Shown: positions 6,864 to 30,100 of the stretch, piece after piece
Position numbering within the stretch: the first letter of the stretch is position 1
Layout of the letters: each line of letters begins with the position of its first letter
Source of the DNA: a virus
Taxonomy: Duplodnaviria > Caudoviricetes
Length of the DNA: 39,659 nucleotides
Virus record (IMG/VR): IMGVR_UViG_3300029448_000113
Location: 1-39,659 of that record
Reading direction: 5' to 3' (one strand)
Made by a program: the position numbers and the translations under genes
Notes under the pieces: model-generated
Database searches by the model: none
What the model was told of the DNA's origin: nothing
Seen by the model: the letters and a program-made list of their open reading frames with translations, nothing else

Positions 6864-7178
6864 TTACGTTTCGAGGTCGCTTGGCTCATCCCCTTCCAAG
6901 TCCTCGTAAAGTTCTTTGTTGGCAAGTGACTCTATCGCACTCACACAACCCTTAAAACCATTAGCAAACCCTGCGCTGAAAACAAGGTCTTTTTTATCCT
7001 CTAAGCAATAAGACTGATTTCTTATCACCATATTCGCAAGTGTTTTGGAAAACTTCTGCCCTGTATCACTCTCTAGGAATAATAGTAGTTTGACGGAATC
7101 TTCCTCTTTCCACTCCGGTTCGGTTGTCCATTGTACCTCTCTGGCGAACAGTAGCATCGCCCTTATCTTTCTAAACAT
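6864..7178 (-). CDS. Small head-assembly protein between portal and scaffold (104 aa)
   Basis: FLESDTGQKF..L and GFANGFKG..IESL pattern; position matches small portal-scaffold linker genes of podoviruses. Confidence 0.55.
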   Translation of the reverse strand: MFRKIRAMLLFAREVQWTTEPEWKEEDSVKLLLFLESDTGQKFSKTLANMVIRNQSYCLEDKKDLVFSAGFANGFKGCVSAIESLANKELYEDLEGDEPSDLET

Positions 7179-7726
7179 ATCTTACTTCCTTTTCTTAGGT
7201 TATCTCTTTTCCACATTGGCTTTAGGTTGCTGAAGTGCCAACAAGCTTCAAACTCTTTTTTATTCGATTGGTCGTGGGCGCATACTGGGATGTGGTGGTC
7301 AATGTGCCAGTGAGTGCCATAGTTCTTCCAGCTCATTCCTCTCTTAAATTGAACTTCAAGGTGCTTCAGGAAATGCTCCCTACTACATCCTAGTGTCTTT
7401 TCAGCTAACTTGCTCTTACCTTTTATTAACCTGCTTATTCTGCTTCTAAGGTTTGCTATAATTCTTAGGGCAGGGTTGCTAAGGAAAGCCTCTTTTCTTT
7501 TTTGGCTTATTATTTCTTTATACTTACTTTTGTAAGCCTTCTGCTGTGCTCTTATCTTTTTTCTGTTTTTCTTGTAATATTCTCTGCCTCTCTCATTATG
7601 CTCTTTTTTATTCTCCTCGTAATACTCCTTATACCACGCAGCTATCTTTTTCTTGTTTTTCTTTGCGTAGGCTTTTCTGGTTTCAGGGTAGTTATTTTCT
7701 CTACTGTTGTTGGATTTGTTCGGCAT
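7163..7726 (-). CDS. Free-standing HNH-type homing endonuclease
   Basis: C-terminal MSWKNYGTHWHIDHHIP..CWHFSNLKPMW..DNLRKG motif and a K/Y-rich helical-repeat N-terminus. Strongly A-rich; overlaps both neighbours. Confidence 0.85.
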   Translation of the reverse strand: MPNKSNNSRENNYPETRKAYAKKNKKKIAAWYKEYYEENKKEHNERGREYYKKNRKKIRAQQKAYKSKYKEIISQKRKEAFLSNPALRIIANLRSRISRLIKGKSKLAEKTLGCSREHFLKHLEVQFKRGMSWKNYGTHWHIDHHIPVCAHDQSNKKEFEACWHFSNLKPMWKRDNLRKGSKICLER

Positions 7727-9545: not shown

Positions 9546-9765
9546 CTTGTTTCCTTAGTTGGTACTCTAAATCGTTTACTGAGTGAAGTGCTTCCTTGGC
9601 CCAACGCTTCACAGCCTCCCCTGATCCTTTAACAGATTCAAACTCAGGCATCTCTGTTAGACGCTTAACATTGCCCTCTGGCAACCTAGTAGTTGGTAGC
9701 GGTCTGAGGCTACTGCAACTGGTCGTTAATATGATCAGCAGTATGCTTATGCACTTTAGCGGCAT
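9538..9765 (-). CDS. Lipoprotein, putative o-spanin (Rz1-like)
   Basis: Signal peptide with lipobox-like ILTTS-C followed by a Pro-rich segment. Overlaps the upstream TM gene in another frame. Confidence 0.55.
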   Translation of the reverse strand: MPLKCISILLIILTTSCSSLRPLPTTRLPEGNVKRLTEMPEFESVKGSGEAVKRWAKEALHSVNDLEYQLRKQDD

Positions 9766-9871
9766 CTTGTTCCTTTATTTCCTTTTTAGTAGCTGCCCTG
9801 TTATTAAGCCACCACAGCCAGATTGATAACCCAGCCCCAGCTATGCCTAAGATTCCTTCTATGTATCCCAT
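9710..9871 (-). CDS. Small N-terminal TM protein, putative i-spanin (Rz-like, 53 aa)
   Basis: From ATG 9871: MGYIEGILGIAGAGLSIWLWWL (TM helix) plus a short charged helix. The track's longer start at 9979 runs through a structured RNA region. Confidence 0.5.
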   Translation of the reverse strand: MGYIEGILGIAGAGLSIWLWWLNNRAATKKEIKEQDAAKVHKHTADHINDQLQ

Positions 9872-9959: not shown

Positions 9960-10023
9960 GTAGGAATTACTATTAGCATAAACGGAAAGATTCAAGTTTC
10001 TTATGTATCGGATATTTCGAATC

Positions 10024-10140
10024 GGAGAAAACCCCTGTCTGTAAGAAACTCATTTTATCCTTTCTCCACTTTCTCCGAGGTTCTCCAAAATACTCACACT
10101 AGAATATAATAGAATAGATTAGAGTAAATTACATTATATT
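10024..10140 (+). repeat. Origin-like element 1: inverted GGAGA, 3x TCTCC, AATACTCACA, eight degenerate A-x-A-x-T pentamers
   Basis: TCTCC at 10063, 10072 and 10082; AATACTCACA at 10089-10098; AGAAT ATAAT AGAAT AGATT AGAGT AAATT ACATT ATATT at 10101-10140. Confidence 0.7.
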
Positions 10141-12373: not shown

Positions 12374-12702
12374 CTGGGGATTTATTTCAGTTGGTGGCGT
12401 ATGTATATGTGTAGAGGGAGAGGGAGTCAACTCCAAACCTCGGATGCAGTCGCGTCTACAAGCGTGGCGGGTCATCTCCTCGCATTGCGGGACACTCAAG
12501 TCCATCCTGAAGCGAGGCAGCGTGTAGGTTTCCACGAAAAAATTATTAGTTGAAACAGAGAGCCACTTCGGTGGGCGCGTCATATCAGGCGTGCGCGGCG
12601 TGGAGCGGGTCAGAGAATCAATAATCTGATCGCAGCTAAGAAACGCCACTCGCCTCTCATCTGGGTCACTGGCCTTAATCTAATCAAGAAAAAGGAAAAC
12701 CA
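12374..12702. promoter_or_regulatory. Divergent control region between the packaging/late arm and the early arm
   Basis: Strand switch. Contains an A/T tract followed by TTGAAA (about 12537-12555) and clustered hairpins, including CCAC-TTCG-GTGG. I found no canonical -10 at 17 bp. Confidence 0.55.
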
Positions 12703-13016
12703 ATGATAACAGAACAAATCAACCTGAACGGAATAGAAACACCAGAGCAAGCAATCAAACCTAAGGCTCCAAGTGAGGCGGCGGTGAAGAAAGCAGAGAA
12801 GGAAGCAGCCAAGAAACAGGAAGCAGAAGAGTTGCAGACTCAGCTAAACCTCAGGCAAGAAGAGGTCATTCGCTGGCATCGTAACAATGAACACTCACCT
12901 TGGCCTGAGTATCCGCAAGGAAAGCGCAAGGAAAACGGTGAGATCAAAGAGTACATCCAGCGTATCAAACGCAAGTAAGTAAAAAACCAATCCGGTCAGT
13001 GATCCAGATGAGAGGT
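12652..13016 (+). repeat. 23-nt imperfect inverted repeat (12652-12674 / 12994-13016) flanking ORF 12703-12978
   Basis: GCCTCTCATCTGGGTCACTGGCC pairs with GGTCAGTGATCCAGATGAGAGGT. All non-Watson-Crick positions are G-U on the plus strand. Confidence 0.85.
12703..12978 (+). CDS. First early protein, unknown function (91 aa)
   Basis: AAGGA plus A-rich leader; coherent helical K/E/A-rich protein. Confidence 0.7.
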   Translation: MITEQINLNGIETPEQAIKPKAPSEAAVKKAEKEAAKKQEAEELQTQLNLRQEEVIRWHRNNEHSPWPEYPQGKRKENGEIKEYIQRIKRK

Positions 13017-14325: not shown

Positions 14326-14595
14326 ATGAAAATAGATAAAGTATCCAAGCTTGAGCAAGATATGATTCACACAAACCTAGGCATGAAGATGATTGTCGAG
14401 CGTGTAGAGAAGGAGTTACTAGCCATGAAACAATCCTTTGACCACATAAGGAGAGAAGAGAAGCTGATAAGAAAGCGGCTCACCTTGCTAGAGGAGGAGG
14501 TAAAAGCTGGCAGAGTGGAGACGGATTCCCAAAACACTGTCTCCAGTTATCTCCAGACATCTCCGCAATACTCACAAGAGAATAGAATAGAATAG
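14326..14595 (+). CDS. Hypothetical coiled-coil protein (89 aa) whose 3' end runs into origin-like element 2
   Basis: SD AAGGAGG. The C-terminus ...SQENRIE is encoded by the TCTCC/AGAAT repeats. Confidence 0.65.
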   Translation: MKIDKVSKLEQDMIHTNLGMKMIVERVEKELLAMKQSFDHIRREEKLIRKRLTLLEEEVKAGRVETDSQNTVSSYLQTSPQYSQENRIE

Positions 14596-14626
14596 AATAG
14601 AATAGAATAGATTATATATCTATATA
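14517..14626 (+). repeat. Origin-like element 2: inverted GGAGA, 3x TCTCC (10-bp period), AATACTCACA, (AGAAT)6 and AT tract
   Basis: TCTCC at 14540, 14550 and 14560; AATACTCACA at 14567-14576; (AGAAT)x6 at 14579-14608, then AGATTATATATCTATATA. Confidence 0.75.
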
Positions 14627-14640
14627 GTGTAAGGAGCTTT

Positions 14641-14744
14641 GAGCATATAAGGGAATGATGCTACGGGAGAGCCGTAGATATGTGTTTAGAGGGTTAGGTT
14701 TTTCCCTCTGTCATTGGCACACTTGAAACAAACCTTATATGCTC
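14641..14744 (+). ncRNA. Structured three-way-junction RNA motif, copy A
   Basis: P1 GAGCATATAAGG/CCTTATATGCTC (12 bp perfect); junction GAATG; P2 AT-(G bulge)-CTACGG-GAGAG-CCGTAG-AT; P3 TGTGTT/GGCACA with inner AGAGGG/CCCTCT; junction CTTGAAACAAA. Confidence 0.65.
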
Positions 14745-14855: not shown

Positions 14856-15089
14856 ATGCAAATACTAATGATGGGCGGCGAGGATGTTAAGTCCTTCCCT
14901 GCCAAATCAAAAGAGTGTCCGTTAAGGGCATTGATAGAAGCCACGATGGATTCACCTGAACTCAGCCCTATTCTGGTGACAGAGATAACAACAAGAGAGG
15001 GCAAGAGGCGGCTCAGGTCTGTGTACTCAGATGATTCAGTCGCTAAGGTGGCAAACGAAATACTAGATGAAAGGCATAACAATGAGTGA
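14856..15089 (+). CDS. Hypothetical protein (77 aa)
   Basis: AAAGGAAA leader; overlaps the next gene by 8 nt. Confidence 0.65.
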   Translation: MQILMMGGEDVKSFPAKSKECPLRALIEATMDSPELSPILVTEITTREGKRRLRSVYSDDSVAKVANEILDERHNNE

Positions 15090-15546
15090 GAAAATTATAG
15101 GCAAACTAGTTAAGGATGACATAGGTATTCAGCGATGGCGCGGTGGTGACATAACATCTAGTGGCGAAGCTCGCTATGACGTAGTGATAACCGATGGAGA
15201 CTCGGTGTGCTACTACCCATTGATGATGAGTATGACTGACTGCTGTAAGGAGATGGAGACTAAGCACGGAGTTAGCCCGCTAGATATTAAGTTTGAAAAG
15301 ACTTCCTATCGGTTGGGTTTAGAAGCAAGACATGAAAGATATGAAAAGAAAGAGAGAGAGAAGCTGGAAGAAAAAGAAAGAGAGCTACGGCATGACGCAT
15401 GGTCGGAAGTTCTGATAAGCGGCGATCTACGATTTGCTATGAGCCGCGAGGATGCAGATAATATATTCAATAGGCAATTGGAAATGCTGAGATTCTACAG
15501 GCGTAGAGAAAAGCAAAAGAAATGGAAGGGAGGCCGATGGGCTTAA
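15082..15546 (+). CDS. Hypothetical protein (about 154 aa)
   Basis: Open frame on the coding strand; start at 15082 (MSEKII) is likely coupled to the upstream gene. Confidence 0.65.
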   Translation: MSEKIIGKLVKDDIGIQRWRGGDITSSGEARYDVVITDGDSVCYYPLMMSMTDCCKEMETKHGVSPLDIKFEKTSYRLGLEARHERYEKKEREKLEEKERELRHDAWSEVLISGDLRFAMSREDADNIFNRQLEMLRFYRRREKQKKWKGGRWA

Positions 15547-15553
15547 ACAATAG

Positions 15554-15647
15554 GTAGCTTTTAGGCTACTGCAACACCGTTCATGGCTGGCTGCAATGCA
15601 GGGCTAGTCGTGGGCGGTATGCAGTTGCTTGATAGTATCAGGTAACT
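15554..15647 (+). promoter_or_regulatory. Long G-U-rich intergenic hairpins (candidate RNase III processing site)
   Basis: 16-bp stem 15576-15591/15603-15618 with 5 G-U pairs, closed by ACTGCA/TGCAGT; a second 11-bp hairpin at 15623-15647. Confidence 0.55.
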
Positions 15648-15658
15648 CAACTAGAACA

Positions 15659-16795
15659 ATGGAAGATACACAAGAAACCAAGATGGCTCATGACTTCAAA
15701 GTTGTGAGTGGAAATGCAATGTACCCCAGCGGCCCACAAGAAGGGCGTCCGATTGAGGGTTACAAAGCAATATACAGGGAGGACAATGGCTTATGTTTAG
15801 GTCAGCACTCAGATGACTACGGTATTGTACAATACACAGACCTCAAGGAGTGCGTAGACAATGCCATTCAGTTCTACCTAGGAGAGAAGGACATGGAAGA
15901 TGTTGGACTCACGTTCCAATCGCAGACGTTCCCATCTACGCGAGGTAAGATAGATGGAGGCAAGTGCATTATGAACTGGAGTCTGCCAATGTTCCAAGAG
16001 AAGGAGGTAGAGACAGGCGACATACTATCATGGGATGTTCGCATTAGGAGCAGTCACGATGGTAGCTGGTCTGTCGAACCTGAAACTGGTGTCACTCGTG
16101 TGGCTTGTATGAATGGCTGGACAACACGGTCAGTAGTCAAGCGAGCTACGCTCAGGCACACCAAGCACATCAACATAGAAACCGTAGTGAAAGCACTGAA
16201 CAATTCGTTAGAGGATTTCCGTATGGGAGTCAACGAGTACGGGTTTATGTTCAGAGACTTACGCACTCAAGTTACCTGCCAAGAAGGTCTTAACATGATT
16301 GAGAACCTGTTCGGTCACGGTAGGAAGAGCACACGCAAGGCCGTTCAAAGCATCTGGGCGCAGCCGACACGGTGGAATAACATACCGCTGGGTAGGCATC
16401 CCTTCAAGGACAAGACTTGGCACAACCACTTCCACGATAACAACAGGCTTGTTACTCTAGATGAGGGTACTAGCAGAGAGGAAGCATGGAAGTTCCCGCA
16501 GCGTACTGATCGAGAGTCTACCGCTGCTGTTGGTGATCTATTCAACTGCATCACGCAACACCTAACACATGAGGATGGATCACTGGTCAAGCGGTCAGTA
16601 GAAACCCAGCGTGTACTCAAGGAACTGATTGACTTCTGTGCTAGAGATGATGACAAGTTTGAGGACATGAAGCTCACTGGTCAGCGTGTTACCAAGCGCA
16701 AGTCAAACAGGACACCTAAGAGTGGCATCACTGGGTACGCTGTGAGAGAGCACCGACCTCTTGCTGCTGCCACACAGGAGACAACCAACAACTAA
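15659..16795 (+). CDS. DUF932 (phage/plasmid LGT_TIGR03299-like) protein
   Basis: Motifs AIYREDNGLCLGQHSDDYGIVQ, SSHDGSWS, RVACMNGW and LRHTK. Confidence 0.85.
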   Translation: MEDTQETKMAHDFKVVSGNAMYPSGPQEGRPIEGYKAIYREDNGLCLGQHSDDYGIVQYTDLKECVDNAIQFYLGEKDMEDVGLTFQSQTFPSTRGKIDGGKCIMNWSLPMFQEKEVETGDILSWDVRIRSSHDGSWSVEPETGVTRVACMNGWTTRSVVKRATLRHTKHINIETVVKALNNSLEDFRMGVNEYGFMFRDLRTQVTCQEGLNMIENLFGHGRKSTRKAVQSIWAQPTRWNNIPLGRHPFKDKTWHNHFHDNNRLVTLDEGTSREEAWKFPQRTDRESTAAVGDLFNCITQHLTHEDGSLVKRSVETQRVLKELIDFCARDDDKFEDMKLTGQRVTKRKSNRTPKSGITGYAVREHRPLAAATQETTNN

Positions 16796-16799
16796 AAGA

Positions 16800-16845
16800 A
16801 ATGGAGGGGCAGGGGGCTGATGCCTAATTTCCCTGCCCCTCCTTT
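16800..16845 (+). terminator. GC-rich hairpin after the DUF932 gene
   Basis: Perfect 12-bp stem GGAGGGGCAGGG/CCCTGCCCCTCC followed by TTT. Confidence 0.6.
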
Positions 16846-16900
16846 GACGTTACGAGCGAGGAGTCGTGAGAGTTGTAATGACTGAGAGGAGGTTAATCAA

Positions 16901-17179
16901 ATGAAAGATACTAGTCAAATATCACAGGTTATGCCCTACCGAGTTGAACCCATGCAAGTGAAGTTCATGGAACAAGATATACCTGACTACTACAAGTATC
17001 GTGTGGTAACAGTTAGTGGCAATCCCGCTGGGCCAAGGCTGCTAAAGAGTAACCCGCCGCCGTATGTTAAAAGCTGGGGGCCGTTCGATACATGGGAGGA
17101 AGCTGAGTCTTTGATGGACTTACTTACTAGCCACACAGAGAAAGCAGAAGAAACAAAATTCAAGAGGAGGAGAAAGTAA
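16901..17179 (+). CDS. Hypothetical protein (92 aa)
   Basis: SD GGAGG; TAATG coupling to the next gene. Confidence 0.7.
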   Translation: MKDTSQISQVMPYRVEPMQVKFMEQDIPDYYKYRVVTVSGNPAGPRLLKSNPPPYVKSWGPFDTWEEAESLMDLLTSHTEKAEETKFKRRRK

Positions 17180-17370
17180 TGCACTTAATAAACATCACCA
17201 ATGTAAAGAAGGAAGCAATAGAAACATCCAAGAGATTCAAGGGTGGCAAGTTCACTATGGTATCCAAGGAGTTTCTTAACGAGGTTGAGGAGGACGTTCG
17301 GTTGCTGGTGTACAAGAAGGTCATGGCCCACCCAAGTAAGGGCAAGACATTGCGAGCACTTCGAGGTTGA
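17179..17370 (+). CDS. Putative minimal histone-fold protein (63 aa)
   Basis: LINITNVKKEA / xVSKEFLNEVEEDVRLLV / GKTL pattern parallels the short prokaryotic histone alpha1-L1-alpha2-L2 arrangement. Confidence 0.6.
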   Translation: MHLINITNVKKEAIETSKRFKGGKFTMVSKEFLNEVEEDVRLLVYKKVMAHPSKGKTLRALRG

Positions 17371-17594
17371 CCTGTAAGTACAGGCGTACATATAATGCGC
17401 CCGTGCCAATCAAGATCACTAAGAAGGACAAGTACAAGGACGGTAAGAGACTCCGTTCCTATCGTTTATCAGACGCAACAGTCGAGAGGCTGGATGATCT
17501 AGCAAAGTCTACGGGTAAATCCAAGACCGAGGTAGTCGAAGAACTCATTCACTTAGCGGAGGTAGACGATGAACTCGAAACAGAAGGGAGCTAG
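17367..17594 (+). CDS. Ribbon-helix-helix (CopG/Arc-like) DNA-binding protein
   Basis: RSYRLSDATVERLDDLAKSTGKSKTEVVEELI. Exact start uncertain. Confidence 0.8.
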   Translation: MTCKYRRTYNAPVPIKITKKDKYKDGKRLRSYRLSDATVERLDDLAKSTGKSKTEVVEELIHLAEVDDELETEGS

Positions 17595-17910
17595 AGGCGA
17601 GAGGCTATGGCGTGATGTCATACGCTCTTATGGATTCGATGCAATCCGAGGGTGTCAGAACGCTGGCCGATTCGCAGGAGGGCAGGAGGCTCCCGATGTA
17701 ATAACAAACCTGCCCTTCCACTTTGAAGTTAAGTTCGTAGAGAAACTCAATGTGTCTAACGCAATGGCTCAGGCTAAGAATGATTGTGATGGCAAGCCAC
17801 CGTTAGTAGCACACAAGAAATCTAGAGAGAACTGGTTGGTTACAATGGAGTCCGACCTTTTCTTTCAACTAGTACGGGGCGAAATCCCCATTAACCAAGA
17901 AGGAAAATAA
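17569..17910 (+). CDS. Holliday junction resolvase-like PD-(D/E)XK nuclease (Hjc type)
   Basis: MNSKQKGARGER, APDV, HFEVK, QA..D and WLVTM motifs. Confidence 0.88.
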   Translation: MNSKQKGARGERLWRDVIRSYGFDAIRGCQNAGRFAGGQEAPDVITNLPFHFEVKFVEKLNVSNAMAQAKNDCDGKPPLVAHKKSRENWLVTMESDLFFQLVRGEIPINQEGK

Positions 17911-17912
17911 GT

Positions 17913-18461
17913 ATGAGCGAAGAGAACCAAGAGAGTGTTCCCGTTACTGCGGAACAGCAAGTAGATGCACTGAACAAGGTCATTGAGGAGATGGCCGAAC
18001 ACATGGAAGAACTGCAAGCCAAGGTCAAAGAGGGAGAGGATTGGTCAACATCCAGTACCGCTACCGGAAAGCTGGCTGCTGCACTATCCAAAGCTCAGGG
18101 TGAATGGGCTAAAGGTGTTATGGCTGGCGGCGACAACCCGCACTTCAATAGTAAGTTCGTTGAGCTAAAGGATGGTGTTAGTATCGCTGCCCCCGTGCTC
18201 GCTAAGAACGGTCTGTGCGTCACCCAATCAACTGTACCTAAGACCTGCAACGGACAGGACAGGATGTTCCTAGAGACTGAGCTATCCCACACATCTGGTG
18301 AGTGGCGTAAGTCTTACTGGCCCATGAGCCCCGAACGTAAGGGGCAACAGGCTATGGCTAGTGAGCACACCTATGCTTGTCGCAGGTCTTACCTTGGCTT
18401 GTTGGTTATCCCAGCATTCAAGGATGACGATGCAGAAGCTTCAGAAGGGAGAGGTAAATAA
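17913..18461 (+). CDS. erf: ERF-family single-strand annealing recombinase
   Basis: LAAALSKAQ, NPHFNSKF, LAKNGL..TQ, LSHTSGEW, Q..ASEHTYACRRSY and DDDAE motifs. Confidence 0.9.
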   Translation: MSEENQESVPVTAEQQVDALNKVIEEMAEHMEELQAKVKEGEDWSTSSTATGKLAAALSKAQGEWAKGVMAGGDNPHFNSKFVELKDGVSIAAPVLAKNGLCVTQSTVPKTCNGQDRMFLETELSHTSGEWRKSYWPMSPERKGQQAMASEHTYACRRSYLGLLVIPAFKDDDAEASEGRGK

Positions 18462-18640
18462 TGGCTAAGGACGCGTCCTCCAAACCGGAACACGGGGGGC
18501 GCGTCCCTACCATACGAGAATGCGATGAGTTTAATCGTGCCTTTAACAAGTGGTACAAGAAACGATTCGGAGGAACTTATGGGTATAACAAGCACAAAAA
18601 CACTAATCCCAGAAAATCTGGAAAAGAAAACAGCCCCTAG
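18461..18640 (+). CDS. Small basic hypothetical protein (59 aa)
   Basis: Not in the track. TAATG coupling to erf with SD GAGGT; MAKDASSKPEHGGRVPTIRECDEFNRAFNKWYKKRFGG... Confidence 0.55.
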   Translation: MAKDASSKPEHGGRVPTIRECDEFNRAFNKWYKKRFGGTYGYNKHKNTNPRKSGKENSP

Positions 18641-18788
18641 TCGGCATCACAAAACCCTATCACCATCCTCATTCCCCGCCCTTGAGGCTTGTCCTTGCTA
18701 CAAGTCTAGAGAAGGGGGGAGTAGTGCGGCTGCTGATAGAGGGAACGAACTACACGAACAACTAAGCGAGCTACTACAAAATGAGTAA
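18579..18788 (+). CDS. N-terminal fragment of a PD-(D/E)XK (Cas4/DUF2800-like) exonuclease
   Basis: SD GGAGG before ATG 18579. LSPSSFPALEACP..AADRGNELHE is the canonical N-terminal motif of this family. Confidence 0.7.
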   Translation: MGITSTKTLIPENLEKKTAPSRHHKTLSPSSFPALEACPCYKSREGGSSAAADRGNELHEQLSELLQNE

Positions 18789-19626
18789 GACTTACGAGAA
18801 AGAAATTGTAGAGGCTGCTGAATACATCAAGCGTGTGTCTGGCGATAACCCAATCGAGTCAGAGATAGAGGTCAAGCTGATGCGTGATGGTGAAGAGATA
18901 ACATTCGGAACCTATGACGCATATAGTAAAGGACATCTGTTCGACTTAAAGACGGGTCAGATGGAGAGGAACTATGTACCGCAGATGGCTGTGTATGCAG
19001 CAGCTATATGTCAGCGGGATAACGTAGAACAAATCACCTGCCACCTGATCTACTCTACTCTGGGTAAGATCGACCAGTTCACATTCAGCAGGGAGGAAGC
19101 TGAGACACTTGCGTTTCGTATTGTGGATTCAGTTAAGAACCCAACCAGATCACCTAACCCGTGTGACTACTGTAACTGGTGTCACCACACTGAGTATTGC
19201 ACCGCACTCAGGTCTACTGCAATGACGGTAGCCGAGAAGCAAGGGCTGATACTCAAGGAGAAGGTCGATGCAATCACGGACGGCAAGACAATGGGCGTGT
19301 TTAGTGACGTTGCTCAGGTCTGCGGTTCGTTCATTGAAATGGTTAAGAAGAAAAGAGATGAGTTCGACGAGGTAGATGGATGGTCAAAGTCTACCCGCAA
19401 GGGAACCAAGAAGATAACAGATATAACCGGAGCACTGATTCAGTCAGGAATGCCAGCCGCTGTATTTGTTAACGCCTGTACCGTGTCGTACTCAAAGCTT
19501 AGGAAACAATTTGCTGAACACAAAGGAGTCAGCGAGCAAGAAGCAGATAGGGAATTGTCCACCCTTATCTCTTCCGTAATAAAAGAAGGACACCCAGTTA
19601 AATACTGGAGAAAGGATAAAGCATAA
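18781..19626 (+). CDS. PD-(D/E)XK exonuclease, catalytic/C-terminal part
   Basis: E..GTYD..FDLKTG..QMAVYA motifs and Cys cluster CDYCNWC..C; partner of ERF. Confidence 0.85.
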   Translation: MSKTYEKEIVEAAEYIKRVSGDNPIESEIEVKLMRDGEEITFGTYDAYSKGHLFDLKTGQMERNYVPQMAVYAAAICQRDNVEQITCHLIYSTLGKIDQFTFSREEAETLAFRIVDSVKNPTRSPNPCDYCNWCHHTEYCTALRSTAMTVAEKQGLILKEKVDAITDGKTMGVFSDVAQVCGSFIEMVKKKRDEFDEVDGWSKSTRKGTKKITDITGALIQSGMPAAVFVNACTVSYSKLRKQFAEHKGVSEQEADRELSTLISSVIKEGHPVKYWRKDKA

Positions 19627-19630
19627 TACT

Positions 19631-19903
19631 ATGCCACAAGAAAAACTAGGTAACGGAGTTCTAATGAAGAACGGTTACAAAGAAGAGGGTGACAAGAAAC
19701 CAGAGTACACTGGGCCTTGCACGTTAATCGTTAACGGTATGGAGCAGGAGGCAGAGATCGCCGCTTGGGTTAAGACTGCATCGAAAGATACGGCACGGCT
19801 CAAGACAGGTGACAAATACTTCAGCTTCCAGATTAGCGAGAAGTTCAAGAAGGACATTGCCCCGCAGAGCAACGCACCTGCTGACGATCAGCCACCATTC
19901 TAG
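19631..19903 (+). CDS. Single-stranded DNA-binding protein (DUF736/Drc-like)
   Basis: GVLMKN..K..KKPEYTG..IAAWVK..YFSFQI motif and SSB-like acidic tail DDQPPF. Confidence 0.75.
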   Translation: MPQEKLGNGVLMKNGYKEEGDKKPEYTGPCTLIVNGMEQEAEIAAWVKTASKDTARLKTGDKYFSFQISEKFKKDIAPQSNAPADDQPPF

Positions 19904-19909
19904 GACGTT

Positions 19910-20341
19910 ATGAGCGAGCGAGCATCATACGCCCATAGGAAATGGGGCAAGGTTGGGATGTTAACTAACCCCGACAAAGAACAAGCTGCCGTTCTAGATA
20001 GAGCGATAGCTGCTGTAGCAATAGCCAGTGGAGTATCTCCAGCCAAGCTTGTCAACAAGGACAGGCGACCTGAAGTATGTGACGCTAGGTTTATTGTTTA
20101 TCATATCTGCATGAACGCAAACGTAGAGTTCTCTCGGAGCAGTCTGGGTAGGGCTCTTGGTAGGGATCACGGTACTATCATCAACGGTATTAACATTGTT
20201 GACGAGAGACTAGACCCTAATGAGAGAGCGTTTGCTGAGTTCCAGATGCTATACAAGAGGACTATGAAAGAATACGAGAAACTAAAACATGAGAAAGACC
20301 CCAAACGTATGGTACAGGAACTCTGTGTACATGATGGATGA
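19910..20341 (+). CDS. DnaA C-terminal (domain IV) HTH protein
   Basis: GVSPAKL..KDRRPEVCDARFIVYHI..SRSSLGRALGRDHGTIING matches the DnaA domain IV signature (RDHTTV). Confidence 0.85.
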   Translation: MSERASYAHRKWGKVGMLTNPDKEQAAVLDRAIAAVAIASGVSPAKLVNKDRRPEVCDARFIVYHICMNANVEFSRSSLGRALGRDHGTIINGINIVDERLDPNERAFAEFQMLYKRTMKEYEKLKHEKDPKRMVQELCVHDG

Positions 20342-21104
20342 CAAGGAAATGATCTACCTCCAGAAGCGTGACTGTGCTGGTTGCGCTGTATGGGAGTGGA
20401 TCAAGTCCGACTGCTGGAAACGCACCAGACCTGATCTCAGGGAGCTATCCGAGATAGAGAAGGAAGGTGTAGCCGAAGCTCTAGGTATGTTTACCGAAGA
20501 GGGGTTCGGAGACTCAGCCAGATTCGACAAGATCATTGAACTGTTTAAGAAACTTAAATGGATTAACGATGCTGGAGAGATCAAGGGCTGGGATAAGTGG
20601 CAGTCAGTCAACACCAGAGTAGAGGACGCAGCAAGAAAGCGTGTGGAATACTGGGAGAAACGTACAGAAGATTACGACACCCCAGAGATACCACCCCCGC
20701 TGGACACTGATGAGTTCAAGATGAAATGGGAAGAGTATGAGAAGTATCGTAGACAAAACGGTATGAAGAAGCTCAAGCCTATCTCAGTGAGCAAGATGTG
20801 GTCAGAGATGTGCGGGTGGGGCGGTGCTGAACCTGCTATACGAGCTATCGAGACAACCATGACAAAGGGATGGCAAGGTATATTTGCCCCCAACAATGGT
20901 AGTGGCGGTGGAACGCGTGGTGGTGGTAAGCCGCAAACCTACGCAGGTAAGCTGTGGGCTCTAGGAGAACACAAGAAAACACTCGTCGAAGAACGGAACA
21001 GGCTCAAGGAATGGGAGCCGACCAAAGTAGACGAGATCAAACAACTGAATATCAAGATCGGTAAGATCAATAAGTCGATCAAGGAATTGGAACCTGATAT
21101 TTAG
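20289..21104 (+). CDS. Phage replication initiator / replisome organiser
   Basis: N-terminal WYR..MDDKE, winged-helix end IKGWDKWQ..AARKR, and C-terminal F...WEEY..YR..AIE.TM.KGWQGIF domain. Confidence 0.75.
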   Translation: MRKTPNVWYRNSVYMMDDKEMIYLQKRDCAGCAVWEWIKSDCWKRTRPDLRELSEIEKEGVAEALGMFTEEGFGDSARFDKIIELFKKLKWINDAGEIKGWDKWQSVNTRVEDAARKRVEYWEKRTEDYDTPEIPPPLDTDEFKMKWEEYEKYRRQNGMKKLKPISVSKMWSEMCGWGGAEPAIRAIETTMTKGWQGIFAPNNGSGGGTRGGGKPQTYAGKLWALGEHKKTLVEERNRLKEWEPTKVDEIKQLNIKIGKINKSIKELEPDI

Positions 21105-21110
21105 TGCAAC

Positions 21111-24100
21111 CTACCTAACGGGCTCGGTAATGTAATCAGACATGGACTCACCGCGCATCGCCATCTTCTCCATTAAGACGTTGGCAACATCCTGAGTCAG
21201 TATCTTCTTACTAGCCAAGTCCGTTAGGTAGACCTTTACTTCTGCTGGCTGCAATCCCTGCATCTTCTTCAACACCACCGATGCCCGTGCGGCAGACGAT
21301 GAGTTCTTCAATCTTATTTCATCAGGCTCAAGGCCAAGAGCCATTTCCCTCAACCTTCTGATTACTGCCATGTTCACCAACTCCTCATTACTATTGCGAG
21401 GAACAGGCAACATCCTAACCCTATCCTGAATGGTCATCCCCCTAGTGTCCGTCATGAACTTGTCAACCACCCGCCGCCTCATAACACGCTGAGTAGCATC
21501 CAGCTTGTTCTCGTCGTTCAGTATCTCATCAAGCTCAGTCTCTTTCAGGAATGTGCTACGGGCTAACCTACTCAGCAGCGGCGTAGATGAAAGCGTCCGA
21601 CCGATAGGCATTGTTCCATCTTGGTTCGGTATGCCTGTGTTCTCAGGTGGCGTGAACTGCGTAAGCAATCCGGCGGTCAGTCCATTGACCATGTGCTCCA
21701 TCCTTAAAGCACCCAACCCAAAGTGTACGTTCCTGTATATGTTTGGTGTCTTGTCAAAGAACTGCTGGCTAACGTCTGCTCTCTCCAGTGAGGGAGGTAC
21801 GATTGGCTTGTGCCTAAAGAAGTTCCTGTTACTTAGAACCTCTATCGGGCCTTTCAGGATCGGGTTAAGGCTGGACATCACACTCTCACCTGTCTTGATA
21901 ACCTCACCATCAGTAACACCAGCAACATTAACTGGCATACTAGCCTCAACCCAGTGACCTAGCATTTCGCTAACCGCCTGTGGGTCTTTCTGATAGTACC
22001 AATCAAGAGCCTTCTCCATCGTGTAAGAGAACAAGCCGAATGTCTCCCTTCTGGGAATCCTGATGTAGTCAGCAACCATCTTACCTTCAATGTACGGATG
22101 CTCAAAGTATTCGCCTAGAGGGATGTGTATGTAGTTCTTCTTATCCTCGTCAGAAATCTGGTCGTAATCATCCTCACGATCCTCGTTCCTTCTGTTCATT
22201 GACCAAGCCCAGATCGTAGGCAGGACTGCGAATGCGGAAATCTTCATGCCGACCATCAGTGCCTCACCCTTCTCCTGAGATGTACCGCTAAACACCTTAG
22301 ATAATCTACTGAGGTCACGCTCAACACCCTGTATTCTAGCGTTAAAGAACAAGAACAGTATGTTCAGTGCCTCATTCTTTGTGACTTCACCTTGCCTCAA
22401 GAAGTCTGGGGAGCCAGCGAAGTTCCTTATCTCAGTGGCAATGAAGTCCATCTTCTCATCAATCTGATTCTTGATGGCTACCTTTGCGGCGGATGTCTTA
22501 GCCTTATCCATCTTGGATCGCAGCTTCTCTATCTCTTCAAAGCCCATCATCCTCTGCATCCCCACCATCTTAGATGTCTGCTCAAGAGTCTTACCAAACT
22601 GAGAGAGCTTTGCAGTGACAGCCGTTAACGGGTTCTTGCGTGACAACTTCTCTCCACTGAGAACGTCTCTTATGTGGTCAGGCTTGTGGAAGTATTCAGC
22701 AATGGTTGAACCCGCAGCACCGCTGTTAATAAACTCGCTGTAAAGATTGTCTAAGCTTTGAGTAAACTCAGGTGACTTCTCAGACATCAGGTTCTTGATA
22801 GAGTTAGGTGTAAGGTTGGCCCACGATGCTGCCATCATTGCTCTGATGTATTGCTGCGCCAGCACCCACGGGTTAAGACCTTTATCTCTATTCTTCATCC
22901 CAGCCCTAGATGTAGTCAGCAAGCGGATAGGGTCAAACATTGCAAAGTTAAATGCTTGGAAGAATATATTAACACCAGTAGCACCCATCTTAAATATATC
23001 ACCAAACACCTTCATTGCTCTGTGTGCTTGGGATGCACTCACTGGCGTGAACCTGTTAGCTACATCAGTAACGCGCTTGTCTAATCCAATGTAACGCTTG
23101 CGTCCGTTCTCGTAGAACATTAACGCACCCTTGCCTGAGCCTTCCGACAAATCTTCTGGGTCTATTATCCTAGTGATGTGATTGCCGTCAGGATCAAAGT
23201 CATTTCTCCATAGGTCTATCTTCTTTATGTATTCATTCTTCTCCGCTCTCAGCGTACTGTAGTAAATCTTAAACCTACCAGCATCCATCGGCTTAACGAT
23301 AGTCTCACCTACGTCAGTGATTCCCTTAATGGTCTGGCCGAACGTGTCCTCTGGGTTGCGGTTAAAGTACCTAACAACATAGAATGGAACGTAGAATGAT
23401 GTGCTTCTCTGTATGGAGTTGTACAGTGTGGGGCTGAGTACGCCAGCCTGACGCAGCTTCATTAGTGCTCCCTCCATGTGCGAGTGATACTGTTCCTGCG
23501 CGTCAACAAACTTACCAGTAACCTCACCGTTCACCATATCAAGAACTTCAGGGTCAGCTATCTTATCCTTGAGGAAGTTAATGCCTGAGTAATAGTCATC
23601 CTTGAATGAGTTCCAATCTTTGTACGGTGCAACTTCTTTCGAGATGCCAAGTATTCTAAGGTACTCCATCTCAAGTTCATCCCTAGTCTTTTTAATACCA
23701 TCAACTACCCAGAAGTCTTGGTTATCATCCCTGAGATCAAACTCAATCGGGTCGCCCTTCTCATCCAGAACCCAGTTGCTCTTATCTTGGAACTGTCTAA
23801 GCCTAGGCTCTAGCTCACCCATCTTAGTCTGCTGATCTATTAGGCGAGACTTGATCCGCTCAAGGATAATAAAGTCAGACCACTCATCATCTATCATTCC
23901 ACTCGCTCTGCCCAAAGCACCTTCTACATCACGCTCCATAACCTGAACATCCCAATCAGCTTTAGGTGCAGCACCAGCTTGGAGTTCCGCTAGATGAGCT
24001 AGGTTTGTTTTCCCTTGCAGTGATGTCTTATCAACGACCTTCTGTAATACCTCCCAAGGATGCTGAGAACTTACGAATGCGCTCTTAAACTTATCCCAAG

Positions 24101-27100
24101 TAGACATTGAGTTTTCTACTAGAGTCTTTGACTCCTCTGGAACTTCAGTCTTTGCTTTGATTATATCGAGGACTTCCTCGCCTGATCTAGCCCCTCTCTT
24201 TCTGGCAAACGATCCGGTTATCTCTATGTCGGAGTCATCGAATATGACGTAGTTGTAGTTCCCCTCCCCCTTACTACGGCTTGCTCCGTCTAAGAATTTA
24301 TTACCACGAATACCGTGCTTGAGGAGCATAAGGGATGTGGCTTTGGCGGGCTTAGTTTGGTAATCCCCTTCATCGCGCATTTTATAGGCTAATAGCTGCT
24401 CGATTGTTCGATATATCTGCATACCGCTATTTAAGTTAACTGGAAGTAACTCGCCCAAGTCGTTCTCTAGATTGTCCAAAGATTGCTGAACCTTTTCGCT
24501 TTGCTTAACGCGAGGCTCGTCCAATAGGAGGTACTCATCTTCGGCTGGGGCTAGTTCAACTTTGTATCCTTGGCCTTTCTGTGGAAGTTCAAGCTCTAAA
24601 AACTTATGCAAGCTTTCCGCTAAAACATACCACTCAGGTAGCCAATTAGGGTCAGCAAAGCCTAACTCTTCTGGGGATTGTATCCTTCCGATTTCTTTGT
24701 GAATACGAACTTGCTTTGGTTCCAACAGTAATCCAAAAGCTTCCTCAAATTCCTCTTTAAGACCCGCGTCCATTCCAATCCCTAGACCCCTGTCGTAATC
24801 AATTCTCTCAAGCAAATCCCGCATTACACTTTCTCTTTGTGTATATATGCTGTCAACTGGTTTGGCTTTTAATGTTTGGTCAAAATCTTTTAGCACAGCC
24901 TGAACTATCGGCTCATCGTAACCAGCATAAAAAGCACCTTCCATCGGGCCTGTCCACTCATAATCAACTGTCTCACCCATGTATTTTGGCTCAACAAAAC
25001 CTTCACGATTTCTAAGATTCTTGTAATGCCCGGCAACGCCCTGTCGTGTAGAAAAGTACAGCCCCCAGCCAAACGCTTGAGCACCCTCACCTGTTCCCAT
25101 GAAGCCAGTGTCAAACCTGTCAAATCTTTCCCCCCTTGGTGAGCCGTGGTATGCAGCAGCGAACAATGCTAGGTCACTTCTAATTGCCTTCCAAACCTCT
25201 GGGCTGTACTCAATAACCAAGTTCTCGTTTATGCTAGACTTGCTCGCCTTATCCAGAACAAAGCTAGAACCATTAGCAAAGTATAGATTCTTGCTGTAGG
25301 TCAGAACCAAGCCGCTAGTCTTACCAGCAAACTGATTAACGTAAACCTTACCGTACCCTTCCGGTGAGCGTAATGGGATCGGAACTTTCTCGGCATTGAG
25401 TCTAGGTCTGCGAGAATAAGTAGCCCTCTTCCTTACTGATTCAGACAGGTGCAGTGCCACCTCTTCAAGTATACTACCGCGAGCAGCGTCTAACCCAAGG
25501 GCTTCTGATATAAGCTCAAGGATTCTATTGAAAGCCGTGCGGATTATACCCTGATCTCTAACCTGAATACTCGATAGTAACTCTTGGACTTGCGGGTCTG
25601 AGATAGCGTGAGCAATGAACTCCCTGTTGTCCTGCAAGAAGTACCTATCAATGTCTGACCCACGCTTGTCTAACTCAGCAGTTACCTGTTCCCGAAGCTT
25701 TGTGAGCCTAGAGTTTATACCCTTATCCTTGTGTACATCAAAGGTTACAGAGTGGATGAACTCCTCAAGAAGCGTGTCAAAGTTCTCTACATCATCACTT
25801 ATCCGTGTCGGGTCAATTACAATCTGGTCGTTTATCTGGTCGTACATACCAGCACCAGCAATAGGATTCTCCATGCTCGCTAGGAAAACATCTGGGCTGT
25901 GACCTTTCTCGAAAAGATATTTTACCAGCGGTTGAATCCTCTTGGCTCTCGCCCTAGCCTCACCCTTCAAGGGAGCGAAAACTGTGTCAAAGGCTTCTGA
26001 GATATTAAAGTTACCCTTCTGCTTGCCATACCTTACCAAAGAGTTCTCAGTGAACATATCGACGTATGGCCTGTTCTTTCTACCTCTTGAGAATAAACCA
26101 ACCTCGTCAAACGCTGTTCGCAAATCTTTCCTAGTAAGGAACACATCCTGAAACTCCCTTTGAGAATCATGGAAGGCACGGAGATACCTGTTCTCCATAT
26201 CAAGCATCATCTTACTGATCCGCTTATTGCTGTACTTCTTAGCAACTTTAGCGGCGGTCATCTTCGGGTCATAGCTTGCTGTCTTAGAACTAGGATCACC
26301 GATTGCGTTTAGGTAAGGAGGAACAGATTCCATTACCTCACCGTTAATCTTCACCTCAATGCCACGCTTGCTTCTTTCTACGCGACTATCCCTGACGCTG
26401 ACGATCTTGTTTATCTGCCGTCGGATTTCGTTCATCCGTGTCCCTCTGGACTTCTGACCTGCAAGCTCGTTGTTTAGCTTTTTAAGTAATACTTGGTTGC
26501 GCCAAATCTCTTTCTTAATCACAGACTGCCTAGCTAGTAGCTCGCCTAAATATTCCTTAACATTCCTCTCGACCCAGTTAGCTTTCTCAAAGCCCTTAGC
26601 ACCCTTAGCCCATTTAGGTCGCCTACTAGCTATGGTAAGAGGAACTGTCTGGTTGCCCCTTCGGATGCCCCACTGGAATGGCTGTCCTTTAATAACATTA
26701 CCACCCGTCTCTGGGTCTAGGGATACAAAGCCGCCACCTATCTGTGGGCCAGTGCCAATGCCTCCCATCTTTACTTTTATCTTAGTGTTAGCCTCAGATG
26801 CTACTACATTGTTTTCCTCAAAGCCCTCGAACTGAGCTTTAATAGCGTCATCACTCCACTTAATAAAATAACCAGACCACTTGGGGGATTCGGGGGTGGA
26901 TAGGTTTTGGGAAATCCAGTTAAGTGCTTCAGCGAATTTACCCTTAGACTCCTTGCCTAGCTCGCTATATCTGTTGGGAGATATTTCTGGGCCTAACTCT
27001 CTCAGGTTCATCATCTCGCTAAGAACCAATCTCCTAACGTGCTGCTTAAACCTTTTACCGTTAAGCTCATCTATCTTCTTACGAATCTGTATTGCTTCTT

Positions 27101-30100
27101 CCTTTAGCTGGTACAGATCAGACTCGACCTTTGGCCTATCCTTCTGGGCCTTCATCCTCCAATCAACCCTGTTGGCGAACTCAGGAATAATTACCTTAGT
27201 GTAAATATCTTGGTTGACCCTAGAGTAATGCCACCAAGGCTGATCCTTCCAGCCAGACAGAGACTCAGGAGACTCATCCTCATGCAACCTTTTCCTGAAG
27301 TCGGACAAGAAAGACCTTACAGCAATCTTGGTCGCCTCCATTGCCCGTATCTTTTTGCTCCCCATGCCAGACATCTCGGCACTACCGGAGTGGTATTCCT
27401 CTATAGCAAGGTCTAGCTTCGTAAGGTCTGCACCCTCGACTCCTGCTTCAGCCTCAACAAACTCTTCTCCATCAAAAATAATGTCTGGGTATCTTGAATC
27501 AGTTTCAGCCTCTCCGGTTATGTCAGCCCTAAATCCACCTTCCTCTCTAAGATCATCCCATCCGGTCATGCTGCCTTCTGAGAACTCACTCGCTGTACGG
27601 CTCGCTGTTACCCCTCCTGCTATGTTTCGGGACTCACCTCCTGCTACACGAATCTGCTTCTTAGACCTACGCTTGCGTTCCTGCTCTGAAAGCCTCTTAC
27701 CTTTAGTTGACTGACCTCCCTTAACTGACTCGATCCTAGCCTCCTCTCTTCGCCGTGCTCGAACCTGATCCAAGAAGTTTCTTTTTAGAATAGCCGCACC
27801 GGATATAGGTGCTTTGGTTCTGGCTACTCGCATTATGTCAGGGCTTAGAGCGGCTTGCTCAGGGGTAGCACCACGACTTATCTCGTTGTCCATTACCTCT
27901 TCTGCTCTGCGTCTTAGCTCCTCAATCATACCCGCCCTGAACTGAACCCTACCCTCTTCAGTTGTAGTTCCTTGAGCGTATGTGTTAAATCCGTGGAGAG
28001 CATCGTAAGCCATGTCGTATGCTTCATCTCCAAACTCTCTTACATTACCTGCCGCAAGCTTCAGTGCGGAACGACGAGCACCCTCAAAGTAATTTATCTT
28101 TTCTATGGCTCCCGTTTGAGGATCAATAGCATTCCAACGCTTGCCCCAGTTATTGCTTTCAATGCCCCAAGAACCGTAAATGGATATAGGGAAGTCCTTT
28201 GACTCAAGCTTTTGAAGTAACGGGTGAGGCTGTCTGCCTTTCATCTGGTTATCTTCTGCCATTGACTTAGTGTGAAGATTGCCAGTGAGAAGCTTGTTGA
28301 GTTCGTCAGGGGAAATCTCAAGCTCCTGCTCAAGAACTAAGTCCTCCCGCTCTGGCCTCTTGCCCTGAGTAAAGCCTAAAAGCTCACGCTCGGATGACTC
28401 GGCTGGGTCGGTAGACATTACCTGTTTGCCTATGCGTTGCTCTAAGCCCCTTATGTCACCTTCACCGCCATACTCTCTAGCGAACTGAGGTTGCCCACCG
28501 AAAATACCTTGATCGGGAATTTGGGCATCACCCCTCTTACCGACTCTGCGAACACTCCTCTTAGCTTGTGGCTTGTCAAGAGCCTCTGGGAACTCCTCAA
28601 ACATTGCGTCCTGCTGAGTAGCGGGATCACCTATCTGCCCCATCTCCTCCTCTGTAGGTCTTAGCTCATTAGGAAATAGCTCTGCTGGTAAAGAGTAGAA
28701 ACCACCGCCCTCACCCGAATCTTCTGGCGTCTCTGGCGCAAATAGATCGCCTTGATTAGGGTCGCCCTTCCTTCTCCTAGCAAACGCTACTGTGTCATCT
28801 TCGCTTGCTGGTGTAACCTTTTTGGCTATTCCTTTTAGAGCTTCATTTTCTAAGTGATCGCCTATAGTTACGATGGCGTTTGTCTCATCAGCAGTAAGGT
28901 TATCCTGCCAGAACGGATCGTTAACTACAGCCACGGCGGTTTCGTCAAAAGTATTATATTCAGCTAGTCCGTCATTTAAGTTTTTGATTAGCTCTTCAGC
29001 CTTATCCCCATCTAGCTCGGAAAGGTTTTGGTACTTTGTAATATCCTTCCAGCTTTTGATTTCTGAAAGAGCCTCTAATTGAGCGGCACGGGCCTCGGCT
29101 AACCTTTGCTCGCCCTTCTCGAAAGCTGCTTGTGGATTGAGCCCCTGTATAACGTAGCCTTTATCAGCTAGTTTTTTCTCGACCTCCTTACCTTTAGTTA
29201 GAAGAGATGCATCGTTTTCAATTTCAACACCGCCCTCTTCAAGAGTTTTATTCCTAAGTTCATCGGCGGTTTTCTCGTCACCCCCCTTTAAGGCAGACCT
29301 ATACTTGTTGATAGATGAGCGTTTCCCGATAATGTAATCAGTGCCTCGACGTTGGCTCTCAGATTCCCCTACCTGCTGACTCGGCCTGACGGGTGGGCCA
29401 TAACCTCGATCACCCATCCACATATTCAAAGCCCTGTTAGCGTCGGCTTTACTCATCCTGCCCATAGCACCCATCTCGCTTGGAGGGGTCTTGCCTTGAG
29501 CTTCTGACTCAAACACTTCATCTACATGGGTGTTAATTACATCGCCCTGTAACTGAGTGTAGTAACCTGAGTTAACTAGCTTCTGAGTTTCTGCCTTAAT
29601 AGAATCAGCGTCCACCCCAGCCTTTCGCCTATCCCTAATAATACCGTTCAGGGCTTTTGAGTGATCGGCAGACATATCTTTAGTCAGGTTAGCTGCGCCG
29701 ATCTCAAGCGGAGCCATACCAAACTCAGCGATGCCCTCTAGGAATACACTCTTCCAATCGTTAATCTTACCCTCGGAACTAAGCTGCCCGAAAAATTCCC
29801 CAGATGCTCCGAGTGTGCTTTGGAAGGCGAGCGGTGCAGCCATCGGCGCAGCTTTTTGTGTTCCCAGTAATCCTATCCTTGCCGCGTTATTTAGTAAGCC
29901 TTCCTTGCCTACCATAACCTTAGCCCTACTACCTGCGGCATTGGCAATTCTTACGCCAGCATTAACCCCTCTACCAGCTAGGCCCATAGATAGAGTGTCG
30001 AACATGGCAATAGGTATGCCGTACTTTGCTGCCTTGCTTCTGGCTTTCTTTAATGTTTCAGGATCATTGAGAGAATTAAACAAAGCTTCAGGGTCATCCA

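Follow-up and report, generated by a model that had tools for sequence, protein, structure and literature searches.

A three-way-junction RNA family of phages, bacteria and archaea, with two copies in a tailed-phage genome, as candidate self-cleaving ribozymes

The window and its two RNA copies

The stretch of DNA analysed here, called the window throughout, is a 39.7-kb tailed-phage record that is 98% complete and in which profile matches identify terminase, portal, major capsid, RusA, Erf, and exonuclease genes. The best capsid matches are ~30% identical. The minus strand also encodes a virion-type protein of 3241 aa (21111-30836), in which an LPD38 domain is accompanied by a weak ART-PolyVal match below the Pfam cut-off. 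On the same strand, the portal gene has an Endonuclease VII/HNH-like gene inserted immediately behind it (7163-7726). A 22-nt inverted repeat (12653-12674 and 12994-13015, 91% complementary) flanks a 91-aa open reading frame (ORF; 12703-12978) where minus-strand genes give way to plus-strand genes.

Two copies of a small RNA, both of the long class defined below, lie on opposite strands. The features at both sites are listed here; the pairing register of copy A is that of the sequence and of family covariation, and copy B was placed by sequence and covariance model.

14641-14744, plus strand: copy A of the RNA
14641-14652 and 14733-14744, plus strand: copy A stem P1, 12 bp
14653-14657, plus strand: copy A junction J1/2, GAAUG
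14658-14660 and 14678-14679, plus strand: pair A14658-U14679, bulged U14659, and G14660 facing A14678
14661-14666 and 14672-14677, plus strand: copy A stem P2, with loop GAGAG at 14667-14671
14681-14721, plus strand: copy A long P3
14722-14732, plus strand: copy A junction J3/1, CU-UGAAACA-AA
9878-9959, minus strand: copy B of the RNA
9959-9950 and 9887-9878, minus strand: copy B stem P1, 10 bp
9947-9943, minus strand: copy B core AUGGU
9941-9936 and 9930-9925, minus strand: copy B stem P2, with loop GAGAU at 9935-9931
9922-9899, minus strand: copy B P3
9898-9888, minus strand: copy B J3/1
9966-9995, minus strand: promoter-like element read from the sequence, TTGAAT (9995-9990), 17 nt, TAGTAAT (9972-9966)
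9710-9871, minus strand: small ORF with an N-terminal hydrophobic stretch and no family match
14540-14630, plus strand: three TCTCC units at 10-bp spacing and an AGAAT-repeat tract, just upstream of copy A
10063-10139, plus strand: second element of three TCTCC units and AGAAT, upstream of copy B and inverted relative to it
14856-21104, plus strand: gene run downstream of copy A, with DUF932, a RusA-like resolvase, an Erf-like annealing protein, an exonuclease, and a DnaA-C-like HTH

Both copies are real, read as the original prediction had described them, and are the only two in the window. A joint pattern gave two matches, compared with none in 100 of 100 dinucleotide shuffles, and a covariance model trained on 83 family members, copy B among them but copy A not, returned exactly these two (E 1.6e-12 for A and 4.4e-8 for B). 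The predicted P1 pairing holds, and the stem is longer than first written, with 12 bp in copy A and 10 bp in copy B. Folding z-scores were -4.0 for copy A and -2.6 for copy B on the named strands, and -4.4 and -1.3, respectively, on the opposite strands; because the opposite strand of copy A scores -4.4, folding energy alone leaves its strand unfixed. Copy B occupies the same site in all 15 of the relatives retrieved through the upstream protein. A search of RNA sequencing runs gave a single run with 6% of the words, and neither copy is covered by the contigs of runs X1 and X2.

The promoter-like element stops 6 nt short of the P1 stem of copy B, which would thus be, to judge from this arrangement, the 5′ leader of the downstream operon. 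Similar promoter-like boxes with similar spacing occur at most orthologous loci and are absent from three (L506, L048, and L056). The small ORF at 9710-9871 has its ATG 6 nt past P1, without an obvious Shine-Dalgarno sequence, and opens a run toward the portal gene, a scaffold-like ORF, and the major capsid gene; by its position it may be holin- or spanin-like. On the other side, the last gene of the copy A run (20289-21104) is a putative replication initiator. Both TCTCC/AGAAT elements also carry ACTCAC, are kept in relatives, and appear origin-like. They are clade-specific, with the one pattern searched found near 8 of 344 RNA family members, all from the window's clade, and the element was not found in the putative initiator gene.

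A covarying fold in a widespread family

Relatives were collected by a series of pattern scans, each of which fixed part of the core, so a position is called invariant here if it was free in some scan or was seen in neighbouring copies. The pattern taken from the two window copies gave matches at 57 viral loci, of which 43 have a paired P2 and 14 were dropped as chance. With the CTT and AA positions freed, the scan estimate rose to ~830 stretches in IMG/VR, and P2 was paired in 114 of the 121 loci returned (7 dropped), a pairing that the pattern did not ask for. Freeing the supposed bulge position gave 106 of 120 loci with a paired P2 (14 dropped as chance), and freeing the loop gave 96 of 120 (24 dropped as chance). 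The metagenome scan led to an estimate of ~4,200, with 77 of 119 sampled loci real and 42 dropped, and the genome scan to 36 paired matches among 122 loci, about three of them doubtful, most loci being dropped.

All pattern scans together produced 362 distinct cores, which come from phages, from a broad range of bacterial phyla, and from a single clade of archaea. Paired copies occur in genome records under the titles Acidobacteria, Actinobacteria, Verrucomicrobia, Spirochaetota, Gemmatimonadota, Bacteroidetes, Thaumarchaeota, and others, and phage genomes usually carry one or two copies each. Cultured carriers include Terriglobus (L371), Aeromicrobium (L396), and Streptomyces (L380). Short blastn searches of cultured phages and plasmids returned partial matches only, and none of the four records retrieved had the motif. 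Loci L371 and L449 have divergent upstream tandem copies, with an extra J1/2 base and a GGGAU loop or a C at position 20; the patterns missed these copies, and the family is wider than counted.

The consensus reads P1-(C or GN)-AUG-G[U bulge]R-P2-GAGAN-P2′-RC-P3-NN-UGAAACA(AA)-P1′, with ~16 near-invariant junction and loop bases set within freely covarying stems. In an alignment of 79 distinct rows fitted to a covariance model before pairs were counted, 95% of P1 cells and 99.5% of P2 cells are paired, with 486 double changes against 173 in shuffled controls. P3 is only 46% paired in this model-fitted alignment because its length varies. Mutual information in a hand-anchored alignment of 321 cores recovers at least nine pairs of P1, P2, ~4 pairs of P3, and the pair 22-40; the compensatory changes first noticed between two copies thus extend to all three helices across the family. 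Positions 22 and 40 combine as G·A (284), A·G (58), A·A (7), C-G (7), and U-A (4), the non-G forms being enriched by the scan that freed this position. Their covariation shows that the G originally taken for a bulge is paired with the A opposite and that the true bulge is the U before it. Likewise, the strand that had been called invariant, CTTGAAACAAA, is conserved in its UGAAACA portion, while the preceding CUU (CTT in the DNA) and the final AA vary in the family.

Two classes can be distinguished. In the short class a single C separates P1 from AUG; in the long class, to which both window copies belong, GN takes its place and UGAAACA is followed by AA. The GAGA(G/T) pentaloop proposed for the two window copies is present in both and becomes GAGAN in the family, occurring in 81 distinct cores of the loop-freed scan beside single GAAGA and GACGA forms. 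At positions 17 and 72, 354 distinct cores have A/A, 14 have G/U, and one has G/A; the A17G plus A72U variants, collected by a relaxed search of the known loci, come from two or three lineages. The linker between P2 and P3 is 0 nt in the consensus, and a long P1 closes both ends, with a median 5′ arm of 13 nt. The length of P2 is nearly fixed across the family, a hint that the P2 loop may dock on the P1 arm.

No pseudoknot pair appears among the top covarying columns of the 321-core alignment. A pseudoknot between the P3 loop and AAACA was considered, as TGTT/GTTT occurs in 108 of 362 P3 regions (shuffled mean 79, maximum 98), and was dropped for its absence from copy B and for want of covariation. 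A DNA cruciform was also rejected, given the sense bias described below and 126 G-U against 7 A-C combinations in P2, counted with a filter that treats G-U as paired and is thereby biased toward that result.

Placement on transcripts

One orientation goes with a wide range of positions. Copies lie on the transcribed strand wherever the strand could be judged, and counts over 166 non-archaeal cores with long flanks, made with crude ORF calls and without collapsing related phages, show the sense bias family-wide, as had been predicted for the window. A sense stop codon lies at most 50 nt upstream of 64 of these cores (shifted controls 13-27) and a sense ATG at most 60 nt downstream of 34 (controls 6-12), while convergent stops occur at 28 (controls 10-15) and divergent starts at nine. 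The further claim that each copy stands ahead of a long gene run is correct for both window copies and fails as a family rule, in view of the 3′-terminal and convergent copies.

Flanking genes vary, and no fixed neighbour emerged from 141 flank frames scanned, most of which had no match. Downstream lies a helicase, PAPS reductase, SRAP, or small membrane ORF, one or more tRNAs, or no gene; the helicase starts directly after P1 in three loci (L271, L305, and L397). In 12 of 19 cases with a downstream sense tRNA, the tRNA begins within 40 nt of the core, and P1 abuts tRNA 5′ ends. At L593 and L595, the copy fills the spacer between two tRNAs. At L730 and L757, the end of the RNA directly adjoins a pair of convergent tRNA genes to which ARAGORN assigns the unusual anticodon Phe(aaa). 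Tandem arrays comprise 24 distinct close pairs and one triple. In G002, G003, and G004, the copy comes after the last stop codon and before a bidirectional terminator-like hairpin, on whose far side the genes are convergent; copies of other clades end immediately ahead of a promoter-like site. Among all 362 copies, no U tract directly follows the closing stem, with T frequencies of 0.01-0.34 over the 30 positions after the core, which sets the RNA apart from intrinsic terminators. Seven of 11 loci from a single phage clade also have a type II hammerhead, located on the same strand 440-1155 nt further downstream; it comes immediately after a stop codon and precedes a start by ~25 nt.

Some copies lie inside genes. 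At L299, the reading frame of the terminase large subunit contains the motif, at a point between positions 466 and 476 of the profile. Of 61 terminase relatives, 22 could be parsed by pattern; the 15 with the motif have a linker of 42-61 aa and the seven without it one of 26-29 aa. In 22 related records, some of them incomplete, no copy is present anywhere. Two portal genes (L262 and L332) carry the motif in frame beyond the portal domain, and four further open frames with the motif have no family match. The P2 changes of in-frame copies keep the base pairs although they alter amino acids, which indicates that selection acts on the RNA; in-frame copies under such selection are unusual whether or not the RNA is a ribozyme.

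The archaeal copies differ in number, at 3-17 per genome, and the pattern is present in 4 of 41 genomes around G050. Two archaeal metagenome-assembled genomes (MAGs) hold at least 17 and at least 16 copies (150 candidates scored in each), most of them 80-240 nt behind PQQ-domain paralogues on the sense strand, and the eRF1 and Rad51-like neighbours support the archaeal origin. A TATA-like box ~25-30 nt before P1 (-46 to -39 from the core) precedes 20 of 40 archaeal copies, which are paralogues and not independent, against 0-3 for intervals at other distances. In G050 and G051 (L406-L408 and L810-L839; MAGs of 1.7-1.9 Mb), 70 and 74 PQQ-domain matches fall in ~35 genes each, in dispersed and tandem arrays, many with the RNA in the 3′ flank; some RNA copies adjoin only the last codons of a PQQ gene. 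In G052, titled Bathyarchaeota, an HNH endonuclease gene comes at once after the copy (L447/L813), whose P2 resembles that of the terminase in-frame copies.

Relation to known RNAs and candidate functions

In Rfam 15, the window has no match at gathering score, searches around each copy gave only chance-level matches at E up to 10, and the motif went without a match in 88 further sources, in agreement with the first impression that it is no known riboswitch or ribozyme. The literature on ribozymes and phages that was searched, a set outside which most subscription papers fall, contains no description of it. Fremin et al. 2023 (PMC10690425) listed 8,495 unnamed candidate RNAs from IMG/VR, the same source collection and type of method as here, with no function assigned. 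Motif words are absent from the tables compared, and the RNA may well already be one of those anonymous candidates. To judge from the sequence, it would be a new fold whose activity is most likely of a known kind.

The hammerhead has a core of CUGANGA and GAAA strands and a UH cleavage triplet between three stems. The RNA here lacks a CUGANGA strand, and its P3 follows P2 with a 0-nt linker, which places it outside the hammerheads; it also differs from them in its fixed GAGAN loop, its in-frame copies, the lack of an Rfam hammerhead match on any copy, and the absence of permuted forms among those seen. Five pattern matches to circular permutations all proved to be tandem copies on inspection, in scans that could not collect permuted forms. 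The likeness is nevertheless considerable, since hammerheads (RF02276, CL00010; PMC3088659) also set three helices round a conserved core, occur in bacteria, archaea, and phages, and have varied flanking genes. They flank gene blocks in prophages and can sit just before a helicase start, one only 13 nt before it, as the RNA here does (PMC3088659).

Resemblance to the hairpin ribozyme is local. In that ribozyme, A38 and A24 are joined by a hydrogen bond (PMC8216279) and are invariant in 941 examples (PMC8216279 and PMC3672286). The J3/1 run G-A-A-A-C-A follows the order G21, A22, A23, A24, C25 of loop B, a bulged U is conserved, and the equivalents of A38 and A24, A17 and A72, covary in our family. 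These equivalents read U/G (A24/A38) in 14 of 369 cores, with most such bases fixed by the search patterns, and the RNA has three helices with neither loop A nor a four-way junction. Hairpin ribozymes set loops A and B on four helices with G+1:C25 docking, an architecture that does not fit this RNA; the resemblance is one of a single module and the RNA is no member of that class.

The HDV-like fold is a nested double pseudoknot. No pseudoknot pair is among the top covarying columns here, and the tRNAs lie 3′ of the motif, which separates it from the HDV-like theta ribozymes. These are also small phage RNAs set against tRNA genes, linked to tRNA 3′ ends (PMC10879173), whereas the RNA here abuts tRNA 5′ ends and has no covarying pseudoknot.

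We propose, tentatively and at somewhat below an even chance, that both window copies belong to a widespread three-way-junction family of candidate self-cleaving ribozymes that would cut their own transcripts. The last option of the original prediction, a new ligand-binding or catalytic motif, fits best, with catalysis the preferred candidate and a riboswitch disfavoured. As copies occur in several bacterial phyla and in archaea, with no protein shared by the 15 phage carriers compared, neither a bacterial polymerase nor a phage protein seems to be needed, and a host-independent activity fits best. The context-free sense placement resembles that of small self-cleaving ribozymes. By the same analogy, the tandem copies and those abutting tRNAs, starts, and stops may be counted in favour of self-cleavage, as may the downstream type II hammerhead in 7 of 11 loci, which represents one event. 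Across whole genomes, hammerheads are not enriched with the motif: they occur in 3 of 49 motif-bearing records, two of which had been knowingly selected, and in 1 of 46 controls. Sixty other flanks contained no known ribozyme, and twister-P1 was found in none of the 49 records nor in the controls.

Under this proposal, J1/2 and J3/1 would zip into an irregular extension of P1 in which A17 contacts A72, and the fixed-length P2 would lie beside that extension, so that its loop could dock there and form the active site. By cutting, the RNA would divide polycistronic transcripts, shorten tRNA leaders, and define 3′ ends, with a 5′-OH end left on downstream RNAs. In the window, two leaders would be remodelled, that of the portal-capsid operon through copy B and that of the recombination-replication operon through copy A. 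Ribosomes would shield in-frame copies, so that cutting of uncovered ones alone would lower terminase or portal output, and this ribosome-gated cutting is the weakest step of the candidate model. A more specific version, in which a new ribozyme class re-uses a hairpin-like loop-B module with a docking GAGA loop and the in-frame copies act as a translation-gated switch, is rather improbable.

Two facts weigh most against self-cleavage: constitutive cutting should be harmful at the in-frame terminase and portal copies, and the archaeal copies preceded by a TATA-like box suit a small RNA gene. Moreover, other RNA motifs near ribozyme-associated genes failed to cleave when tested (PMC6765202, section 5). 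If the RNA does cleave, it would form a new small self-cleaving class beside the nine natural ones given in PMC8216279, or about ten now known, and the role of such ribozymes in phages is largely open (PMC6765202, section 13). The RNA is short and abundant, with a clear consensus and natural double variants. If it does not cleave, it would be a context-free RNA module, extending from phage coding regions to archaeal chromosomes, that matches none of the described families searched.

The facts that count against self-cleavage are best accommodated by a position-independent binding or protective module, the main rival explanation, which we consider less likely but not negligible. Such a module would bind a conserved host protein or small molecule, as a decoy, sponge, or nuclease roadblock, and would work from any transcript, including coding regions, processed tRNA spacers, and its own small transcript. 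It would account for in-frame copies under structural selection, for the TATA-like boxes in half of the archaeal copies, for the long P1 that closes both ends, and, as dosage, for tandem arrays and the high archaeal copy numbers. Gene context suggests no partner or ligand, however, a 3′-end roadblock would be needless in 5′ leaders or inside ORFs, and binding alone leaves P1 abutting tRNA 5′ ends and start codons unexplained.

A cis-acting antitermination RNA like HK022 put or lambda nut, the first suggestion made for these copies, has become improbable as a general function. The two window copies do precede long operons, copy B follows a promoter-like element, in-frame copies sit in packaging genes, and 29 of 333 non-archaeal copies have a TAnnnT box whose end is 5-6 nt from the start of P1. 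The lambda boxB loop is GAAGA, and this is the loop variant found at L711. The likeness in general is that of small phage RNAs with two neighbouring stems and a pentaloop, some promoter-proximal. The put RNA (PMC9378689) has two adjacent stems and a short triple helix, binds the β′ zinc-binding domain, and has a G35-A9 pair and no closing helix, whereas the RNA here is a closed three-way junction, so it falls outside the put type by architecture. A put-type position upstream of terminators is seen for the window copies but not for 3′-terminal, convergent, or archaeal ones, many copies being at transcript ends, in tRNA spacers, or in archaea. Copies just before bidirectional terminators with convergent genes beyond, the convergent stops at 28 of 166 cores, copies immediately upstream of a promoter-like site, tandem arrays, and the lack of any terminator-like plus-strand site in the run after copy A all argue against it. 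So does the absence of a shared N-like protein: no protein is common to the 15 motif-bearing phage records compared, in which the largest cluster covers at most nine (BLAST E 1e-5, a threshold that short basic proteins may escape). An N4-type hairpin promoter was rejected, as the 3241-aa protein of the window has no RNA-polymerase match.

There is similarly little probability that the family represents selfish, non-autonomous mobile DNA of the REP, RPE, or SINE kind, in which a transposase or reverse transcriptase would recognise the conserved bases. Its spread is patchy enough, with a copy in one terminase clade and none in 22 related records, insertions are in frame in linkers, and archaeal copies travel with dispersed PQQ-domain paralogues, some beside a gene-end remnant only. 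Orthologous copies nevertheless keep compensatory, non-synonymous changes after insertion, the sense-strand bias and the usual one or two copies per phage genome are unlike such elements, and no RVT_1 match was found in the window or in G050, G051, and G052, MAGs that are incomplete. A riboswitch aptamer controlling a fixed gene class is highly improbable, since the junction-centred, aptamer-like conservation and the several downstream genes of DNA metabolism are outweighed by unrelated downstream genes without a constant class, by the lack of an expression platform or U tract after P1 (T frequency at most 0.34), and by archaeal PQQ genes that lie upstream of the RNA and not downstream.

A separate observation concerns eight loci (L001, L004, L009, L010, L027, L031, L043, and G038) with a variable small-gene cassette behind a putative lysozyme gene, bordered on one side by the RNA and a promoter-like site and on the other by a type II hammerhead.
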